This document shows, one piece after another, positions 1 through 56,379 of a stretch of 64,000 bases of DNA; the stretch's first letter is position 1, and each line of letters starts with the position of its first letter. The notes under the pieces were generated by a model. The model saw nothing but the letters and a program-made list of their open reading frames with translations, searched no databases and was not told where the DNA came from. The position numbers and the translations under genes were made by a program. Source of the DNA: Candidatus Colwellbacteria bacterium (lineage in GTDB: Bacteria > Patescibacteriota > Minisyncoccia > UBA6257 > Colwellbacteraceae); contig JAQTUL010000004.1 of assembly GCA_028710275.1 (NCBI GenBank), positions 11,646 to 75,645 on the forward strand, written 5' to 3'.

Positions 1-5
1 GATGT

Positions 6-2165
6 ATGGAGATTATCGGATCTACATTGCGTGATATTAAATTAAGATCTATTATTTTATGTACATCATGCCGATACAGATTTACATTGGATATCAACGA
101 TAAAACATTGGATAAGTACGGTATATTTTATAATCCGATAATTGAAGAACGAGAGAATCTTAAATGTGTGAAACCTTTCTATTGTAAAGAAGAAAGATCG
201 AAACTAGATCGGTGGGGAGTTGATCTTATTCCGGTTGATAAATGGAGAGAATTCTTTCAAAAAGATATCATATTTGGGAACTCTGTTTACAAGAAAAAAA
301 GAAGAGAATGTAATATTACTGATGAAAGTTTCGAAAAGAGTAAAAAGTCGAATATGAAAATGAAGGAATTTATAGCCCCTAATGGTCGAATATTTAATGT
401 TGATGGATATGAATCAAATGTTCTAAAACATCTTGTAAATTATATATCAGAAGAGAATATCATAACCGATTCAAGATGTATCCCAGTAATATCATACAAA
501 TATTTTGATGGTGAAAGAAAGTATTTCCCTGACTTTTACATACCGGAATATAATCTTCTAATTGAAGTTAAGAGCTTGAGAACATATTACGATAATTCAG
601 ATAAAAATATAATGAAGATGTTGTATTCGTTTTATACAGGATACAATGTCGAATTGTGGATAGTATCTAAAAAATACACATATATTTTATTCTTGTCTCA
701 CACACCTTCAGGTATGAATTTATACTATAAAATTATATTGAATAACAACGAAGATGAATATCTTTTTATGGTCGATGTGTGTAAGGGATATTTAGACAAC
801 AAATACTATATCAATAAAAAAGGATTGAAAGTATTGGTTATTTCAGAATGGATAGAATATAAAAGAATTAGAAGTGTGGTTAATGACATCTTTAAACCAC
901 ACGAAAACATTCATACTCTTAATGATCGCTGTAAAAAGTTGGAATCTAAAACAAAGACTAAATTGATTGAGATTGTTATCGAAAGTGATGTCGAAGAAGA
1001 AAAGGAAGAGAAAGTATCCGAATTGGTTGAGATCATTATGGAGAGTGAATCAGACGACGATATATCATTTGAATCTGTTGGAAAATATAATACAGATGAT
1101 GAAATAATCGTGCCAGATCTTTCTTCTTATTTTGAAGCTAAGACTTTTCACATACCTAGAGAGATAACAACCGATATTATGATGTCAGTAATGAAAGATG
1201 GTCGTCGATTCGATAAAATAGTCGATGTAATCATGAAACATTTAGAGAAATATCCATCATTCATATCATGTAGAAAATGGATTACCGATGAAGAATTATT
1301 CAAACGATACGATACAGGTATTATGAAAAGTGTCACTGTTGATGAGAATGATGTGTTGATAAGTAATACAAAATTTGTAGGATTTCTAAACTATTTTGTC
1401 ATGGACGAGATATTAAAAGTAAAAACAGGGTCTAGAAAACGTAACATTCACGATACATGGGATGATCATCAAACTCGTCGTAAATTAGTAGAAGACACTT
1501 TTAAGAACAAAGATTTGAAAGTGTTTACACCTATGTCCATTGAATCGAAATATTCTTATAGGGAATCTAGGGCGTACAATTTTCCTGTAAATATAGCATG
1601 TCATTTATACAATAAATATGGAGGAGAGAGAGTACTAGATTTTAGTTCTGGCTTTGGAGGAAGATTGATCGGATTTTGGAAATCCAACGCGAAAGAATAT
1701 GTTGGAATAGATCCTAATAAAAATATCGATTATAATAGTATACTCAAATGGGTGGGAGAAAATGATCCACAAAATAAAAAGGTCTCTATAATTAGAAAAC
1801 CTGCTGAAGATGTGGATTTTTCAACCTTGGGTAAATTTAACTTTGTATTCACATCGCCTCCTTATTACGATCTGGAGGTATATTCATCTGATGAATCTCA
1901 AAGTGTTTCGCGATATAAAACGTATAGTATATGGTTAGATAAATTTTTAAAGGTTGTAATAGATAAATCTATACATGTTTTGGAAATAGGGGGGTATCTC
2001 GCGATAAATATTCAAAATATCAAAAAATACAATATAGCAGATGATATGTGTAGATATTTAGATGATCGAAAAGAGTTAATTAGAAAAGAGGATATAGTAT
2101 ATAAAAAATCAACAAAGACAAAGAAGAATTTAGAACGAATCTATCTGTATCATAAATTAACTTAA
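6..2165 (+). CDS. Fusion protein: N-terminal PD-(D/E)xK restriction-endonuclease-like domain, acidic linker, C-terminal SAM-dependent gamma-class (HemK/N6-adenine-type) methyltransferase
   Basis: Nuclease motif '...YFPDFYIPEYNLLIEVKS' (PD...EVK). Methyltransferase motif I 'VLDFSSGFGGRLIG' followed about 70 aa later by motif IV 'FVFTSPPYY'. Long uninterrupted ORF. Confidence 0.55.
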   Translation: MEIIGSTLRDIKLRSIILCTSCRYRFTLDINDKTLDKYGIFYNPIIEERENLKCVKPFYCKEERSKLDRWGVDLIPVDKWREFFQKDIIFGNSVYKKKRRECNITDESFEKSKKSNMKMKEFIAPNGRIFNVDGYESNVLKHLVNYISEENIITDSRCIPVISYKYFDGERKYFPDFYIPEYNLLIEVKSLRTYYDNSDKNIMKMLYSFYTGYNVELWIVSKKYTYILFLSHTPSGMNLYYKIILNNNEDEYLFMVDVCKGYLDNKYYINKKGLKVLVISEWIEYKRIRSVVNDIFKPHENIHTLNDRCKKLESKTKTKLIEIVIESDVEEEKEEKVSELVEIIMESESDDDISFESVGKYNTDDEIIVPDLSSYFEAKTFHIPREITTDIMMSVMKDGRRFDKIVDVIMKHLEKYPSFISCRKWITDEELFKRYDTGIMKSVTVDENDVLISNTKFVGFLNYFVMDEILKVKTGSRKRNIHDTWDDHQTRRKLVEDTFKNKDLKVFTPMSIESKYSYRESRAYNFPVNIACHLYNKYGGERVLDFSSGFGGRLIGFWKSNAKEYVGIDPNKNIDYNSILKWVGENDPQNKKVSIIRKPAEDVDFSTLGKFNFVFTSPPYYDLEVYSSDESQSVSRYKTYSIWLDKFLKVVIDKSIHVLEIGGYLAINIQNIKKYNIADDMCRYLDDRKELIRKEDIVYKKSTKTKKNLERIYLYHKLT

Positions 2166-11631: not shown

Positions 11632-11726
11632 CACTTAAAAGAATAGAATACAAAATCTTTAAGGTTCTGTATTCTCCGAGTTTTAAATTTAACAGAAAAA
11701 AATATATGTTCAATCAATAATTGTGA

Positions 11727-19489: not shown

Positions 19490-21379
19490 ATGCCTCCATC
19501 CCGTTCACGTGACGATGATGATGTAGTCGATAACTACTACGATCTGGACGATAAGGATTCTCGTACGGTCGGGATAAAGGAACTCGATCTAAATACTCTA
19601 TATCCACAGCATCCTCTCGACTATAAAAATGGAAGTAAATACTGTATTATCGGCAAGCCTGGTTGCCATAAGAGAGGTACAAAAATTATCTTGTTCAATG
19701 GTGAAACTAAAAATGTCGAAGATATTCAATTGGATGATGTGTTAATGGGAGATGATTCTACCCCTAGACATGTTTTAGGTCTTGCAAGAGGAAGAGAAGA
19801 AATGTACGATATTATCCCTACAAAAGGTGATAAATATACCGTAAATAAAAGTCATATTTTAACTTTAAAATCATCAGGATTTGCAAATCATCCCAAAGGT
19901 GAAGTGATAGATATTTCAGTCAATGAACTTCTTAATAAACAGCAGATATGGAGAACAAGATTCAAAGGATTTAAAGTATCGATTGAATTCGAAGAGAAAA
20001 AATTAGATATTCATCCTTATCTCATGGGATATTGGTTGGGAGATGGAACATCAAATAACGCTGAAATCACGACTGCAGATCACGAAATTGTTACGAATTT
20101 CGATTCGTTATTATATGAATATGGACTAAAATTAAGTAAGAGTGGATGTTCTCCGTACAGATATGGAATTACTCTTATTCATCAAAAAAATAGAAAGGGT
20201 AAAAACCAGTTTATGAACTGTTTGCGAGATAATAATCTTGTTAATAACAAACATATCACTCATCAGTATAAATGTAATAGTCGACAGAATAGGTTGGAAC
20301 TTCTTGCTGGATTGTTAGATTCGGATGGATCGTATAACGTGAAAAGTAAATGTTACGATTTTATACAAAAATCAGAGAAATTATTTGACGATGTTTTATT
20401 TTTAGCCAGATCACTAGGATTTGCTTGTTACAAACAACCATGTAAAAAATCATGTATGTATAAAGGAGAGAAACGAGAGGGTAATTATTTTAGATGTGTA
20501 ATAAGTGGAGACATAGACCAAATTCCATGTAGAGTAGAACGAAAAAAAGCATCCCCTCGTACACAAATAAAAGATGTTTTGGTTACAGGATTGAAAATGG
20601 TTTCTGTAGGAATTGATGATTATTATGGATTTGAACTAGACGGTAATAACAGATATCTTATGGAGGATTTTACAGTTACACACAACACCGGTAAATCAAC
20701 TATTATAAAATCTATTCTATACGCTAAAAAGCATATCTTTTCAGTAGGAGCATTTTGGTCTGGAACAGAGGATAGTAATGGGTTTTTCAAATCGTTTACA
20801 CCAACTACATTTATTAGAGATGGAATGATTGATGCGTCGAGTGCAGCATCACTTAAACCGTTAGAAGATCTCAATAAACGACAGAAGATCGCAAGAAAAT
20901 ATTTAGAACCCAGAGGAGATAATCCATGGTGTGTTGAGGTATTAGATGATTGTACTGCTGATCCTAAGTTCTTAAAGAAAACCGTTCTTAAGGATACTTA
21001 TAAAAATGGACGACACAAGGCTAAGATGCATCTTCTCTCGTTACAGTTCTGTCTTGATATTCCTACCGATACGAGAGGATTGATCGATGGTACATTTATT
21101 TGTCGAGAAGGTAACTCTAAGAATAGACTAAGATTATTTGAAAATTTTGGAAGTGGAGTCGACAATATTCACGATTGGAATGATCTTATGGATGGTCTCA
21201 CCGACGATTACTGTTGTATGTTTGTTAATAACAAGGCTACTACTAACAATATAGAGGATTGTATTCAATACTACAGAGCGGATCCTGATAAGATTCCTAA
21301 GGATTGGAAGTTCGGGTGTAAAGATTATTGGGACTTCCACTATGATAGATATAACCCTAACTTTGTCGAGACATTCTAA
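19490..21379 (+). CDS. A32-like virion DNA packaging ATPase containing an intein in the Walker A motif
   Basis: Exteins give 'CIIGKPG|TGKSTIIKSILY' (Walker A) and 'VLDDCTADP' (Walker B). They total about 290 aa, which is typical of A32. Confidence 0.8.
   Translation: MPPSRSRDDDDVVDNYYDLDDKDSRTVGIKELDLNTLYPQHPLDYKNGSKYCIIGKPGCHKRGTKIILFNGETKNVEDIQLDDVLMGDDSTPRHVLGLARGREEMYDIIPTKGDKYTVNKSHILTLKSSGFANHPKGEVIDISVNELLNKQQIWRTRFKGFKVSIEFEEKKLDIHPYLMGYWLGDGTSNNAEITTADHEIVTNFDSLLYEYGLKLSKSGCSPYRYGITLIHQKNRKGKNQFMNCLRDNNLVNNKHITHQYKCNSRQNRLELLAGLLDSDGSYNVKSKCYDFIQKSEKLFDDVLFLARSLGFACYKQPCKKSCMYKGEKREGNYFRCVISGDIDQIPCRVERKKASPRTQIKDVLVTGLKMVSVGIDDYYGFELDGNNRYLMEDFTVTHNTGKSTIIKSILYAKKHIFSVGAFWSGTEDSNGFFKSFTPTTFIRDGMIDASSAASLKPLEDLNKRQKIARKYLEPRGDNPWCVEVLDDCTADPKFLKKTVLKDTYKNGRHKAKMHLLSLQFCLDIPTDTRGLIDGTFICREGNSKNRLRLFENFGSGVDNIHDWNDLMDGLTDDYCCMFVNNKATTNNIEDCIQYYRADPDKIPKDWKFGCKDYWDFHYDRYNPNFVETF
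19664..20686 (+). mobile_element. intein (341 aa) with LAGLIDADG homing endonuclease, inserted in the packaging ATPase P-loop
   Basis: Starts 'CHKRGTKIILFNGE', carries LAGLIDADG blocks 'LMGYWLGDGTS' and 'LLAGLLDSDGS', and ends 'FTVTHN|T'. Confidence 0.75.
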
Positions 21380-21427: not shown

Positions 21428-22390
21428 ATGCCGAGAGTGAATAGATTCTCTGGACCTATAGAAGATATTGTTGGTAGTACTTGTCCCGGCGCATCATACT
21501 GCGCTATAGATCAATGTTATCGAAATGGTGGTGTGTGTGGAAATACTGGATCATGCTGTCTCACATCTGCGAATGTTAAGGATCTTGTCACTGCTCTCGG
21601 ATGTGGGGGTAGTACCAGTTTTTCAGCACAACGTAAATTTTCTACGCTTAGCGAGGATCCCACAGCTATGAATACCTGTATTACTCAGCTGGGTTTAACT
21701 GGGAGCGATGTAGACTACATGTGTACAAATCTCAGCGCAGATGATTGTTTTTCTGAAATTTGTGCGCTTGGATGCACAAATCACGCGTGTCCTTCTGTCG
21801 CGCCACCCAGTATAAATCTTCAGACTCAAGTGTGTCAAACTATTCAACAATATTGTGACGTGATTGACCCATCGCTTTTATCGGATCCTAATTATAGCGC
21901 TATGTGCTGTTCGATCGATCCTATAGCTGGAGTTCCCGATAGAACAGTATGTGGATGTCCAGGAAATCCATGCTCTTCTAATCCCGTAGTTATGCAAAAT
22001 GTTCAGGCCTTGAAAGCGAGTGCCGCACAGTATTGGAAAAATAATCCTGTTGTTTCTTCTCCCGTACTTCCTTCTTCAGTAAACGGACCGTCGCCTCCAG
22101 TTGTTCAACCAACTCCCGTTCCCGTTCAACCAACTCCCGTTCCCGTTCAACCAACTCCCGTTCCCGTTCAACCAACTCCCGTTCCCGTTCAACCAACTCC
22201 CGTTCCACCCCCAAAAGAAAGTGGAAGAATAAATATCAAAAGATATCTTATGTTTATAATTCTTCTATTACTTCTTGTAGGTGGCGGACTCTACTGGTAT
22301 TTCGTCTATAAAAAGAATTCGGGAGCTTCTGACTCTTCACATAGTTACTTATTTTCTCCGTCTGATCAACCCTTAGGAAACTATCTGTAA
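21428..22390 (+). CDS. Cys-rich, Pro/Thr-repeat, C-terminally membrane-anchored protein
   Basis: Cys-rich N-terminal half, (PTPVPVQ)x6 repeats and a C-terminal TM 'MFIILLLLLVGGGLYWYFVY'. Confidence 0.55.
   Translation: MPRVNRFSGPIEDIVGSTCPGASYCAIDQCYRNGGVCGNTGSCCLTSANVKDLVTALGCGGSTSFSAQRKFSTLSEDPTAMNTCITQLGLTGSDVDYMCTNLSADDCFSEICALGCTNHACPSVAPPSINLQTQVCQTIQQYCDVIDPSLLSDPNYSAMCCSIDPIAGVPDRTVCGCPGNPCSSNPVVMQNVQALKASAAQYWKNNPVVSSPVLPSSVNGPSPPVVQPTPVPVQPTPVPVQPTPVPVQPTPVPVQPTPVPPPKESGRINIKRYLMFIILLLLLVGGGLYWYFVYKKNSGASDSSHSYLFSPSDQPLGNYL
22104..22210 (+). repeat. 21-bp tandem repeat (about 5 copies) encoding PTPVPVQ
   Basis: 'caaccaactcccgttcccgtt' is repeated in tandem. Confidence 0.8.
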
Positions 22391-36240: not shown

Positions 36241-39200
36241 ATGACCAGGAAAACTGATTTCCTCTATAAGAAGAAGCAAAATATCACACCTGTTCTTGTC
36301 TTCTCGCCAAGAATGTCTAAAGCTATCATTATCGAGTACGATTCGGAAGAGGAGATCCAGACACCGGATGAGAATTCGGATGTGGAAATTCTGGAGGAGG
36401 GAGAAGAGATCTTCGATGAGGATCAGGAGGAGACTAAGGAATCGGAACGGATTCCGGAAATGAAATCCCTGAAAATCTCCGGAGAAAAGAAGAGGAAACT
36501 TACGGAGGAGGAGATGTACGAGATTACGGACTTTCTTCAAGTTGATCCTGATAAAGACTGGGAAACATCGATGGCAGTTATGGATGAGAATCGAAACGAT
36601 CTCTTTGAGCAGTTGAAGAATATCGAGATCTATCCGAGTCAGATTCCTAAACTGAAGATGGGAATCAAAAACGATTATGAAACATCAAAGATTGAACCGG
36701 GTACCGCAATCGGGTGTGATAGTTCTCTCGCGATTGGTGAGCCGACGACACAAATGTCGCAGCCAAAGACGACTAAGGTCGTCTTGCGACAGGGTAACAA
36801 AACAATCAATACAACGATGGGGGAGTTCATCGACTCGGAGATTGAGAAGGCGTGGATGATCGTATCAGAGGACAATGGATCAGAGATTGTTCCAGACGGC
36901 GTATTCAAAGTGACAGAGATCATGACTGTTTCTAAAGACGAAAAGGTAAGTTGGAATAAGATTACCGAACTCTCTCGACACCCTGTGAATGGAGATCTTG
37001 TGAGAATCAAGACTGATAGCGGGCGAGAGACCGTTTGTACTCTCTCACATTCACTTCTCACTCGAAACCTTAATGGTGTGGTTCCTATTCTTGGAAGTGA
37101 TATTCAAGTTGGTCATCGAGTACCGGTGTTCTTTCGAACACCCGAAGTAGATAATCCTATCTCAGAGATCGAGTTGTGGAAAGATACTACGGTTGATCTC
37201 ACATCATCGTTCGGTGAGTTTATCGGAATCTACATCGCGGAGGGAAGTACTTGTAAGAGTAGTAATTCTGTTGTCGTTACCACTAATCAGGAATACTATA
37301 AAAATGTATCATACGAATTCTTTTCAGAAATGGGAAAAAACGCTAAAACAAGAGAAAAACCTCTTCATAAAATTCAGGGAAGTAAAAAGGAATATAAAAG
37401 CACGGATCACATAATCTCTCACAAGCTTCTGTCACAATGGCTTCGAACGAATATCGGTACCTACTCTCACAACAAGGAGATTCCTGGATTTATCTATGGA
37501 TGTAAGAGAGAGTTCATCGCGGGTGTTCTTCGTGGAATGTTTGATGGTGATGGTAACTTTCATGGATCGAGAAAAAGTATCAAGTATCACACAACATCGA
37601 GTGAACTCATCCAACAAGTTGCATTCCTTCTCTCGTATTTCGGTATCTTCTCAACATATCAGATCGAGAAGGAGGCTTGTGATGAACACAGAGCGTTGTG
37701 GGTTCTGTTGATCTTCGGACCCAAGTTCGGAAAGATTTTCTCCGAACAGATCGGAACTAACAACGAGAAGAATAAAAGAGAGCTTGATTCATACATCAAT
37801 GATAAGGATGGAAGAAATTTCATTGATCAGGTTCCCAACTGCGCTGAACTTGTTAGTAAGATTGGTAGAGGACTGAAACTTCCCGGCGCATCAAGAAACT
37901 ATGGTCGATGGGTGAAAAAGGAGTCTGAAGGATCTTGTATCGGTAAGAATACTCTGATCGAGTATGTGAAGCTTTTCACCGAAAAGAATGAAGAGAAAGA
38001 TGCAGGGTTCGAAGATGATATCTCTCTGCTTCAACAGGCGATCGACGCTGATGTGATCTGGGATAGAGTTGTTGAGGTTGAGATTATCAAGGCTGACCCT
38101 GACGAGAAGGTGTATGATTTCTCAGTAGCAATCAATGAAACTTTCGCTACTCAATCGGGTATCTTAGTACACAACACCTTGAATTCAATCGATTACAAAG
38201 AGCATATCGTGGTCAAAAACGGTACATCTGTAACATGCCCAAAGATTGGCGACTTTGTGGATAAAATAGTCATTGATAATAAGAAAGATGTCAAGGTTTA
38301 TGATGAGGTTACCGAATACGTAGACATCAATTTCATGAACCTGGAGACACCATGTGTCGATGAAAATGGAAAAATGCATTGGAAAAAAATAGAAGCTGTC
38401 ACCAGACATCCACCTCCGGGAGGTAATAAACTTTTGGAGGTGAAAACTCAAACGGGACGTCGAACAACTGCAACAAAAGCTAAATCTTTTTTGCTGCGAA
38501 GAGATAACAAAGTGGTCGGGGTAAATGGATCCGAATTGACAGTTGGAGATAGACTTCCGGTCACTGTTAAGTTTCCGAGACCTCTTGAAAATGACCGATT
38601 GAAAACCATCAATCTAAGTAGATATCTCAGTAAAGAGAAATTCGTATTTGGAACTGATCTCTGGAAAGCAAGAGAGATTAAGGAGAGATACAATAAAGGT
38701 GGAAGAAAAGAATGGAAAGACGAAATTAGAGAGGAATATACATATGGAGGAAGAAATACCAGATGGTGGTCTGATAATTTCGGAATCGATTTCACTCTCC
38801 CGTATCATAGATGTGATGCAGCAATGGATGCGCTCGAAGGAAAGAAGAAGGAGTATATCGGAAATGAGATTATCAAGAAAGGAATGGTGTACACAACAAG
38901 ACGATCTGTTGGAGAAGTGAATGAAATCCCAGAAGAGTTTGAACTGGATAACGATTTCGGATTTGTTGTTGGTGCTTACATTGCTGAGGGACATTGTGCA
39001 AATACCGGAACACAATGTATCATCAGTAACAATGATGAAAAGTTTCGAAAGAGAATTGAGACGTGGTGTGATAAACATAAACTCGGATATCATGTTCAGG
39101 TACAACACGATAAGAATTTTAAGGGAGCAACCAGTACAGATCTCCGAATTCACTCAACGCTAATGGTTGAATGGTTTACCAACATGTGTGGTAACTATTC

Positions 39201-48252: not shown

Positions 48253-48681
48253 ATGCCGCCAAAGAAAGTCAATTCGTGCAAGCAGTATCTGGAGAAATCC
48301 GGTTTTACTGTCGCTGGAAAGTTCTCCAAGAAATCCCGCAAGTCTCGCAAGAGCCGTTCTCGCAAGAGCCGCAAGTCTCGTAAGAGCCGTTCTCGCAAGG
48401 GACGCAAGTCGCGTAAGAGCCGCAAGTCGCGTAAGAGCCGCAAGTCGCGTAAGAGCCGCAAGAGCCGTTCTCGCAAGTCTCGTAAGAGCCGCAAGTCTCG
48501 TAAGAGCCGCAAGAGCCGTTCTCGCAAGTCTCGTAAGAGCCGCAAGTCTCGTAAGAGCCGCAAGTCTCGTAAGAGCCGCAAGTCTCGTAAGAGCCGCAAG
48601 TCTCGTAAGAGCCGTAAGTCTCGCAAGTCTCGTTCTCGCAAGGGCCGTAAGGGAAAGAAGGCTGCCACGGATGAAGAGTAA
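48253..48681 (+). CDS. ultra-basic KSR/SRK-repeat protein (protamine/linker-histone-like candidate)
   Basis: 'MPPKK...' followed by about 25 tandem (KSRKSR/SRKSRK) units encoded by an 18-nt tandem repeat. Strand chosen by start context and composition. Confidence 0.5.
   Translation: MPPKKVNSCKQYLEKSGFTVAGKFSKKSRKSRKSRSRKSRKSRKSRSRKGRKSRKSRKSRKSRKSRKSRKSRSRKSRKSRKSRKSRKSRSRKSRKSRKSRKSRKSRKSRKSRKSRKSRKSRKSRKSRSRKGRKGKKAATDEE
48330..48650 (+). repeat. 18-nt tandem repeat (cgcaagtctcgtaagagc variants)
   Basis: Direct repeats seen in the sequence, giving long ORFs in three frames on both strands. Confidence 0.85.
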
Positions 48682-55274: not shown

Positions 55275-56379
55275 ATGTCTGCTCCTCCATCACACGAATC
55301 TCTACTCCGTCTTTCCCAGTATCGGGGAGACGCAACCAGCTGTATCAGTCTTCTGATCGGATCAAACTCGGATCCATCATCCACTTCTAAACTCCTTATC
55401 AAGGAGAACAGTGCAGCATCCAACATCAAGGATCGCGCAAATCGTAAGCATGTGACTACCGCTCTCAAGTCTTGTTCTGAAAAGCTCAAGACGTACAAGA
55501 GCATTCCTGATAACGGACTCGCTATTTTCGCCGGGTATTGTGTTTGACGAAACTGGGAAAGAATCGTATATTTGTGAAGCGATCACACCACCTCTTCCTA
55601 TTAAGATGGGATTGTATCGATGTGATAAGATGTTCTACACGGATTATGTTCTCTCACTTTACAAAAACTTTGATAAGTTCGGATTAGTTCTTATTGCAGG
55701 TGAAGAGGTTACGATGTATTCTCATTGTGGAACAAAAATCGACTTGATCGATAAGTTCACCGTTCACCGTCAGAAGAGTATGAAGATGGGTGGTCAGTCT
55801 GCTCAGAGATTTGGTCGGATAAGAGAGAATCAGATTGGTGAGTATGTAAAGAAGATCTGTGAACGATTGGAGAAGAACTATGTCGACTTTACGGTTGGAA
55901 GTCCATCTGTAAAGGGGCTGTTTATCGGTGGAGTAGGAGATATTAAGGACAAGGTCATCATGTCTCCGTTTCTCAACTCTCTTGTCTCTTCAAACATCAG
56001 AAAGGTTATCACTATGTCGGAGATCAGTTTGGATAAACTCATGGAATCATGTGGAGATCTCACATCGTATTCAGAGGAGGAGAAGGAATCTTTAGACGAG
56101 ATTGAGCTCTACACATCACGAGACCTGTCGAGAACAGTCTACGGGTATGATCTACTCCTTAAGAATATCAAAGATGGTGGATTAGAGAAGATCTACATCC
56201 ACTCGATGGTTGAGGAGAAGTTCGGTAAGGAGAACTTCGAACTAGCCAAGACGATGGGATGTAAGATTATACTACTTCAAGGAAAGTCAGCCAAGTCTAT
56301 CTCATTTGTTAATTCGTATGGAGGTGTACTTGGAGTTACATGGTATGATATCGAAGACAATCTTGTCGATGAAGAGTAA
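55275..56379 (+). CDS. eRF1: eukaryotic peptide chain release factor subunit 1 (eRF1), needing a +1 ribosomal frameshift at 55542..55548 (GUU UGA C)
   Basis: Frame A (55275..55547) encodes eRF1 domain 1: 'TSCISLLIGS...AASNIKDRANR...NGLAIFAGYCV*'. The +1 frame (55540..56379) continues 'FDETGKESYICE...MGGQSAQRFGRIRE' with the GGQ motif. The junction matches eRF1 'VYCGTIVTDEGKEK'. Confidence 0.8.

Follow-up and report, generated by a model that had tools for sequence, protein, structure and literature searches.

How do three essential enzymes come to be interrupted by four inteins within 64 kb of DNA deposited as bacterial, and are these elements genuine, able to splice and still mobile? The question is raised by positions 11,646 to 75,645 of contig JAQTUL010000004.1 (assembly GCA_028710275.1), a stretch of 64,000 nt that we call the window. 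It codes for an A32-like packaging ATPase, the C-terminal half of the RNA polymerase subunit RPB1 and an SNF2-family helicase, all on the forward (+) strand. A preliminary description, made from the letters of the window only, had proposed four LAGLIDADG-bearing inteins in these three genes. Our analyses indicate that the window is very probably a fragment of a giant-virus genome in which the three enzymes carry in-frame, self-splicing and mobile inteins in their catalytic loops.

Four inteins in three viral enzymes

Pfam detected Hint and LAGLIDADG domains in all four inserts (E 1e-7 to 1e-19), namely Hom_end_hint, Hom_end and LAGLIDADG_3 in those of the ATPase and the helicase, and Intein_splicing with LAGLIDADG_3 in the two of RPB1, all above the curated cut-offs. 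The first residue is Cys in the A32 and SNF2 inserts and Ser in both RPB1 inserts, and the +1 residue is Thr in all four. Three of them have the block B motif Thr/Asn-x-x-His, as N-K-S-H (A32), N-S-E-H (SNF2) and T-L-S-H (RPB1 intein 1). In alignments to PI-SceI and PI-PkoII, both LAGLIDADG motifs of all four have kept their acidic residue, the motif pairs being GDG/DSDG in the A32 and SNF2 inserts and AEG with DGDG or SGDG in the first and second RPB1 inserts; the homing endonuclease blocks are thus intact, as first proposed. Lastly, in syntenic contigs with empty alleles (L002, L003, L004 and L005) the exteins meet at precisely the positions predicted for all four sites. Domains, in-frame boundaries and empty alleles together bear out the presence of four inteins in three genes. 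All four are genuine inteins and members of known intein kinds; the three genes they interrupt code for essential enzymes, and each intein lies in a catalytic loop.

A tblastn search found no further copies of the four inteins within the window. Another contig of the same metagenome-assembled genome (MAG), L007, harbours at least two more inteins, so that the high density noted initially is confirmed. One of these is a PI-SceI-like P-loop intein at RVGLGK/C...HN/TLIV (here and below, a slash within a motif marks an intein boundary or insertion site) in the 1656-residue protein P0255, and the other an Intein_splicing and LAGLIDADG intein in a PIF1 helicase, both within 1..1694 / 10001..14971 of L007. 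For comparison, a 2018 survey counted 136 inteins over 98 intein-bearing eukaryotic viruses (PMC5784728).

The source label is at odds with the content of the window, which codes for HSP70, a PARP-WWE protein, RING fingers, a Bax inhibitor, glycosyltransferases, an AlkB-like oxygenase, an eRF1-domain protein and a kinase-methyltransferase fusion. Because of the HSP70, PARP-WWE, RING, Bax-inhibitor and eRF1-domain genes and of conserved synteny, we assign the contig to a giant virus (Nucleocytoviricota), and this gene content implies a eukaryotic host. The gene order glycosyltransferase, ~240-residue open reading frame (ORF), RPB1 C-terminal half and RING protein is common to the window and to the contigs with empty alleles. 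The identical proteins MDD4930878, MDD4930893 and MDD4930920 are recorded at NCBI under a 'Candidatus Colwellbacteria bacterium' MAG, on a contig of 83,885 nt. This label is the one argument for tracing the interrupted genes to faulty assembly or binning of a bacterial MAG. Such an explanation is hardly tenable, as the same proteins are present in an independent Logan assembly of SRR22315508, relatives from other samples keep the gene order of the window with or without inteins, and the gene content is eukaryotic-virus-like. A viral contig has been mis-binned in a public bacterial genome, and the taxonomic label alone is wrong.

As a lineage marker we looked for the mimivirid early-promoter octamer AAAATTGA, which is not enriched on the two strands of the window (4 found for 9.7 expected). 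We therefore left the virus unplaced below the phylum; a close relationship to Mimivirus is not obvious.

Based on the established chemistry (PMC4031507), each precursor would be translated whole, after which its Hint domain would excise itself, beginning with an acyl shift at Cys1 or Ser1. Transesterification to the +1 Thr would follow, the C-terminal Asn would then cyclise, and a rearrangement would give a peptide bond. Since the P-loop or trigger loop is interrupted in the precursors, enzyme activity would require splicing: the loops would be rebuilt only afterwards, and the precursors would be inactive before. The double-motif LAGLIDADG endonuclease would cut the empty allele of a related virus in a co-infected cell, and the intein would be copied by recombinational repair. 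We infer both activities, splicing and cleavage, for all four inteins. Packaging, transcription and helicase enzymes of one giant-virus genome can, on this scheme, all depend on protein splicing.

The Walker A inteins

The A32-like ATPase precursor is a P-loop ATPase of 629 residues (19490..21379, from the ORF translation). Its N-extein (19490..19663) ends with CIIGKPG, the first half of the Walker A motif. The intein (19664..20686, 341 residues, of the PI-SceI/VMA type by Pfam) begins with Cys1, ends with THN (20678..20686) and is followed by the +1 Thr. The C-extein (20687..21379, stop codon included) starts with TGKSTIIK and contains the Walker B sequence VEVLDDC and an RH...Q motif. The precursor reads CIIGKPG-CHKRGT...FTVTHN-TGKSTIIK across the two junctions, and excision of residues 59-399 yields a 288-residue ATPase with an intact Walker A motif, IIGKPGTGKST. 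The boundary is fixed by the empty allele L002, which shares 84% protein identity and reads FIGKPG/TGKST. Block B (N-K-S-H) lies at 19841..19861, LAGLIDADG motif 1, YLMGYWLGDGTS, at 20018..20053 and motif 2, LLAGLLDSDGS, at 20300..20332. The intein matches PF05203 (1.1e-18, 68.6 bits for a cut-off of 32.1), PF05204 (8.6e-5, 23.1 bits for a cut-off of 21.1) and PF14528 (1.8e-7), and its alignment with PI-SceI retains the equivalents of both D218 and D326.

The SNF2-family helicase is interrupted at motif I. Its N-extein (61054..61488; the NCBI start is 7 codons downstream, at 61075) ends with LSPGLGK. The intein (61489..62853, 455 residues, also of the PI-SceI/VMA type by Pfam) runs from Cys1 to THN with a +1 Thr, with block B N-S-E-H at 61666..61686 and the LAGLIDADG motifs at 62203..62238 and 62476..62508. 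It matches PF05203 (6.1e-18, 66.1 bits), PF05204 (7.6e-10, 39.3 bits) and PF14528 (1.7e-7). The C-extein (62854..64000) runs off the window; the full protein has 1111 residues at NCBI. SNF2-rel_dom (PF00176) is detected across the intein at 1.9e-24, and the full NCBI protein, P0241, carries PF00176 and PF00271. With its SNF2-related domain and Helicase_C, the ORF codes for an SNF2-family helicase.

The coordinates first given for these two inteins, 19664..20686 and 61489..62853, proved exact. Both had been placed at the GK/T or GK/S position of Walker A. This holds for the helicase, where SPGLGK/TCVF is the classic position and the empty allele L003 reads SPGLGK/TAVF. It does not for the ATPase, whose intein is inserted three residues upstream, at GKPG/TGKS.

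The name 'A32-like' calls for a comment. The spliced ATPase of the window gave no Pox_A32 match with Pfam, and Pfam and PHROGs yielded generic P-loop matches only, which counts against our assignment. Nine of its 29 intein-free homologues match Pox_A32 in Pfam (best E 3.1e-7), and a match to the packaging NTPase B204 of Sulfolobus turreted icosahedral virus was obtained at 4e-6 with the family profile. The spliced protein also shows recognizable Walker A, Walker B and RH...Q motifs. The ATPase is accepted here as A32-like by transitivity through its homologues. A32 serves widely as a marker for the detection and placement of giant viruses. In most relatives of the window lineage it is interrupted, so that detection by hidden Markov models can fail, as Pfam did with the ATPase of the window.

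Inteins at the A32 site are very common in metagenomic data. Of the 120 best matches of the A32 precursor, 116 are likewise interrupted by an intein at this G/[TS]GK site, and ~10 of the 120 have a second one at GK/T, giving the arrangement GKPG/a/TGK/b/T. Searching with the exteins only and taking the 76 nearest representatives at 50% identity, we found 53 with one intein, 22 with none and one with two. No paper describing an intein in the A32 or packaging ATPase of giant viruses was found in the searchable library.

The A32 and SNF2 inteins share 47% identity (E 2.6e-69), in both their Hint and endonuclease parts, and the SNF2 intein has ~115 additional residues after block B. For both, the best match of solved structure is PI-SceI (3e-14). 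The LGDGTS and LLAGL(L/I)DSDG blocks that the preliminary description had read in the two endonucleases are present, and the common origin it drew from them is supported, although at the level of the family. In a neighbour-joining tree of 106 family members (100 bootstraps), the A32 intein falls inside a clade of same-site A32 inteins (bootstrap 66; 100 for its own subclade) and the SNF2 intein groups with the same-site inteins of SNF2 relatives (bootstrap 92), the two being about 50th of 105 in mutual neighbour rank. We therefore take their shared origin to be old, since each intein groups with own-site inteins of other genomes. Recent copying from one gene to the other within this genome was considered and rejected on the same tree.

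With the SNF2 precursor as query, most matches were to this same intein family, located in SNF2, DEAD/DExH, two-ring CDC48, Lon, other AAA+, PIF1 and SMC proteins and in D5-like primase-helicases; 115 of the 130 resolved inteins directly follow the GK of Walker A. The A32 and SNF2 inteins belong to a large PI-SceI-like family inserted in the Walker A motifs of many giant-virus nucleoside triphosphatases (NTPases).

Like PI-SceI, the VMA1 intein of Saccharomyces cerevisiae (also called VDE), both have PF05203 and PF05204 domains, Cys1, an N-x-x-H block B, the two LAGLIDADG Asp residues and a C-terminal His-Asn. They differ from it by their hosts, the Walker A motifs of a viral packaging ATPase and an SNF2 helicase, and by a +1 Thr rather than Cys. 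The DNA-recognition region of PI-SceI is mostly missing from the A32 intein, whereas the SNF2 intein keeps a longer version, with Hom_end_hint covered over positions 1-143 of 228.

Inteins in phage terminase P-loops are known, and the Lys/Thr site has been called 'classic' (PMC5050341). The TerL1-a and TerL1-b inteins described there resemble the present case in that they occupy Walker A of a packaging ATPase at two alternative sites a few residues apart, one of them the classic one. However, terminases and the FtsK/HerA-like lineage of A32 are distinct, the intein families differ, and the two A32 sites are three residues apart and both occupied in some relatives. The cluster-1 P-loop inteins of Anaeramoeba (PMC10710043) are similar to the giant-virus family in that a single family has spread over Walker A motifs in proteins that are not homologous. 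Their description as class 3 sets them apart from the viral ones, which are class 1 and PI-SceI-like, with Cys1 and His-Asn.

In relatives of the window, two inteins can occupy one Walker A motif three residues apart (G/a/[TS]GK/b/[TS]), in A32, in a D5-like primase-helicase and in other NTPases. Such pairs were seen in P0008, P0010, P0012, P0019, P0024, P0058, P0098, P0100, P0103, P0120, P0250, P0258, P0263 and P0290, and their spacing is that of the RPB1 pair of the window. In P0251, P0312 and P0353, also from relatives, the C-terminal HN or RN of one intein is directly followed by the Cys1 of another, with zero extein residues between them; these abutting inteins are either tandem or nested.

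Two neighbouring inteins in the RPB1 trigger loop

The RPB1 precursor ORF (36241..41190) codes for the C-terminal half of the protein and starts ~170 residues before the trigger loop. Its N-extein (36241..36756) ends with AIGEPTTQM, in that loop. Intein 1 (36757..38175, 473 residues) is a canonical class 1 intein at TQM/T, with Ser1, a C-terminal VHN and a +1 Thr; block B (T-L-S-H) is at 37030..37059 and the LAGLIDADG motifs at 37219..37248 and 37513..37557. A spacer of three extein codons, Thr-Leu-Asn (38176..38184), separates it from intein 2 (38185..39822, 546 residues), a non-canonical intein at TLN/T with Ser1, a terminal LAD and a +1 Thr. The C-extein (39823..41190, to the stop codon) begins with TFHLAGVS. 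Removing both inteins restores the conserved trigger loop GEPTTQM-TLN-TFHLAGV. The TLN spacer would serve as C-extein for intein 1 and as N-extein for intein 2.

The spliced fragment matches RNA_pol_Rpb1_5 at 2.6e-49 and, weakly, domain 7, with domains 1-4 absent (Pfam). Two full-length viral RPB1 queries found no N-terminal half (about residues 1-1036 of full-length viral RPB1) in the window. The ORF is thus the C-terminal piece (domains 5-7) of a split gene, and the split is common to the closest relatives. The break resembles the archaeal A'/A'' division. The C-extein also contains a low-complexity insert rich in Lys, Asp and Glu, KKKSGKRGKKDDDEKKKKKKKKGEEDDDEDEQ, at ~40240..40340.

Intein 1 matches PF14890 (1.8e-16) and PF14528 (1.5e-19), and PI-PkoII is its best match of solved structure. 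The empty allele L004 reads TTQM/TLN and has intein 2; in the 120 best RPB1 matches, site 1 is occupied alone in 63. We also scanned prokaryotes, using one genome per species. Intein 1 proved to have homologues at 80 RpoA'' loci of archaea (lowest tblastn E 8e-73, 27-34% identity over query residues 1-488, that is, the full length), in DPANN lineages, Methanosarcinales, Thermoplasmatales and one Heimdallarchaeote. The insertion site was examined in 35 of the 80 loci and is identical to site 1, TQM/T, in all 35. RNA polymerase A'' inteins, such as Mja rPol A'' and Nph rPol A'', have long been known (PMC1635734). The archaeal inteins of our scan share with intein 1 the site (G or S)EPxTQM/T, in the 35 loci examined, and ~30% full-length identity over the 80 RpoA'' loci. 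Archaeal RpoA' and RpoA'' are also split, like the viral RPB1, into N- and C-terminal halves. In contrast, the host of intein 1 is a giant virus of eukaryotes, and a second intein sits 9 bp downstream, an arrangement seen at none of the 35 archaeal loci examined.

Intein 2, with its three-residue spacing from a canonical intein, is the most unusual item of the window. The two RPB1 inteins are homologous (29-34% identity, E 1e-16 and 1e-14). Intein 2 matches PF14890 (5.5e-13) and PF14528 (1.4e-10), and its LAGLIDADG motifs are at 38965..38994 and 39247..39291. Its AlphaFold2 model (mean predicted local distance difference test score pLDDT 86, predicted template modelling score pTM 0.88) has PI-PkoII as best full-length Foldseek match (1.5e-30), followed by the Tli VMA intein and PI-PfuI. 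In block B (38464..38493), T-K-A-K replaces the usual motif, with Lys at the position of His B:10 in the PI-PkoII alignment, and the C-terminal region (39805..39822) shows a block F ending TRNF and a terminal Ala-Asp. The empty allele L005 reads VHN-TLN/TFHLAG and has intein 1. Because a Hint fold and an Intein_splicing match are combined with T-K-A-K, Ala-Asp and TRNF, we consider intein 2 to be a variant Hint-fold class 1 intein that lacks the canonical block B His and the terminal His-Asn pair.

The deviations are shared. All 17 members of the site-2 family start with Ser and end with Asp, with a variable penultimate residue. In their alignment S1, T97, K98, A99, S101, the Y-D-L-T of block F and D546 are invariant; the Lys at the His position (K100) is found in 15 of the 17 and the preceding one (K98) in all. 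We found no site-2 intein among the 35 archaeal RpoA'' loci examined, and the family is virus-only within our survey.

Could intein 2 have lost the ability to splice, leaving a pseudogene or an RPB1 that functions with 546 extra residues in its trigger loop? His B:10, His G:6 and Asn G:7 are missing and Arg stands at F:13; His B:10 has been called the residue most conserved in inteins, and only one working intein without it is listed in PMC4031507. Nevertheless, the odd residues are conserved in 17 clusters that span ~35-86% identity, where the ORF of this essential gene is intact; structure prediction gives a complete fold, and cyclisation is known for C-terminal Asp and Gln (PMC4031507). We therefore regard a loss of splicing as very improbable. 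In our reading, intein 2 would follow a variant route, in which Asp cyclises instead of Asn and a Lys replaces the missing block B His. Tko CDC21-1 also lacks His B:10, and the CIV RNR and Pol II inteins also end in a cyclisable residue other than Asn (PMC4031507). Intein 2 differs from them in having the two deviations together, along with a penultimate residue that varies and an Arg at F:13, and in contrast to Tko CDC21-1 it has its conserved Lys residues within block B and not outside the motifs. Inteins of giant-virus RNA polymerase subunits and helicases have been catalogued (PMC5784728, PMC5871332, PMC10710043), and PMC10710043 mentions atypical C-termini for giant-virus inteins. A family of Asp-terminated, His-less RPB1 inteins represents a natural test of what can be dispensed with in the canonical catalytic set.

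The origin of intein 2 can only be proposed tentatively. It may be a distinct and so far virus-restricted splicing variant, perhaps derived by a 9-bp hop of the archaeal-type trigger-loop intein to the next Thr codon, the G/TGK/T pairs in Walker A being a second case of such 'neighbour-site hopping'; we hold this to be possible rather than likely. Both RPB1 sites are followed by ACCTT, and we speculate that this common sequence may have allowed the site to shift by 9 bp.

Occupancy among relatives, mobility and other features of the contig

Recent or ongoing mobility had been suggested from the intact endonucleases, with a survey of the same sites in relatives as a check. Occupancy is polymorphic at all four sites among the closest relatives. 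The nearest A32 representative, P0361 (84% identity), has no intein. The same holds for the nearest SNF2 extein, P0244 (86%), and the intein of P0242 (84%) is shortened to 320 residues. For RPB1, only intein 2 is present in P0125 (extein 92%) and only intein 1 in P0128 (82%), and both sites are occupied in P0122-P0124. These presences and absences in syntenic relatives (P0361, P0244, P0125, P0128) support a recent gain or loss at each site, and so the suggestion of mobility, with loss as an alternative to gain.

Two further lines of evidence come from base composition and from the junctions. The GC content at third codon positions (GC3) is 0.22 in the A32 intein and 0.31-0.38 in its exteins, 0.29 and 0.39-0.43 for SNF2, and 0.33 and 0.43 in the RPB1 inteins for 0.48-0.52 in their exteins. 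We also compared occupied and empty alleles over the junction flanks 19634..19663 / 20687..20716, 61459..61488 / 62854..62883 and 36727..36756 / 38176..38184. Synonymous differences within six codons of the junctions amount to 10/11, 8/11 and 8/11, with backgrounds of 0.53, 0.43 and 0.33 and per-gene empirical window p values of 0.023, 0.053 and 0.023. This weak clustering may stem from tracts of co-conversion or from empty sites that resist the endonuclease, and we treat it as a lead rather than a result.

If instead the inteins were fixed relics that still splice but whose endonucleases no longer home, the patchiness would reflect vertical descent with occasional precise deletion. The identities of inteins and exteins indeed co-vary (extein 75%, intein 1 74% and intein 2 82% for P0122; 68%, 59% and 57% for P0124), and each intein groups with own-site inteins. 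Recognizable LAGLIDADG motifs have been lost in 24 of the 116 A32-site inteins, shortened inteins occur in P0242 and P0130, and the RNA polymerase inteins of Bodo saltans virus (BsV) have been described as endonuclease-less and fixed (PMC5871332). Nevertheless, both LAGLIDADG motifs and their acidic residues are kept in all four inteins of the window, and certain pairs show a higher identity for the intein than for the extein (82% and 75% for P0122 intein 2, 79% and 75% for P0129 intein 1). The junction clustering, as predicted by co-conversion or target-site resistance, and the lower GC3 of the inteins also argue against relics, which we consider rather unlikely.

A reading in terms of mobile inteins nonetheless has several points against it, to which the missing Pox_A32 match of the spliced ATPase belongs. 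Hom_end_hint covers only positions 1-80 of 228 in the A32 intein, and its endonuclease might bind weakly because most of the PI-SceI DNA-recognition region is absent. Intein identity largely tracks extein identity, a pattern that long vertical inheritance with occasional precise loss would fit as well as active homing. Finally, with no His B:10, penultimate His or terminal Asn and with Arg at F:13, RPB1 intein 2 can be credited with splicing on the basis of family-wide conservation in an essential gene.

Selection might also keep the inteins in place, either as conditional splicing switches for packaging and transcription enzymes or through the damage that their endonucleases inflict on intein-free competitors in co-infection. 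All four lie in catalytic loops, so that the enzymes would be inactive until spliced, and ~70% of the nearest A32 clusters are occupied; a competition model has been proposed for BsV (PMC5871332), and functional retention has been argued for P-loop inteins (PMC4760082). However, the closest relatives manage without each of the inteins, and a purely selfish element is equally expected at conserved sites. We find retention by selection unlikely.

For the RPB1 pair, each occupied site would disrupt the DNA target of the endonuclease of its neighbour, an effect studied for MCM inteins (PMC10643990). With all states of occupancy at two sites 9 bp apart, these viruses offer a natural test of the interference between neighbouring inteins in homing (PMC10643990).

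Several other features of the window were recorded. Directly downstream of the A32-like ATPase gene, a Cys-rich ORF (21428..22390) contains five perfect 21-nt repeats (22103..22206) coding for (VQPTPVP)5 and a C-terminal hydrophobic stretch, FIILLLLLVGGGLYWYF, which we read by eye as a putative membrane anchor; the product resembles a mucin-like surface protein. At 48336..48627, in a region devoid of ORFs of at least 150 codons, lies a tandem repeat with an 18-nt unit, CCGCAAGTCTCGTAAGAG, in ~17 copies with 78% matches. The eRF1 domain 2 match (6e-15) is in an ORF with a GTG start (55540..56379), and a 930-residue ORF (58110..60902) has a methyltransferase domain at its C-terminus in addition to a weak protein-kinase match.

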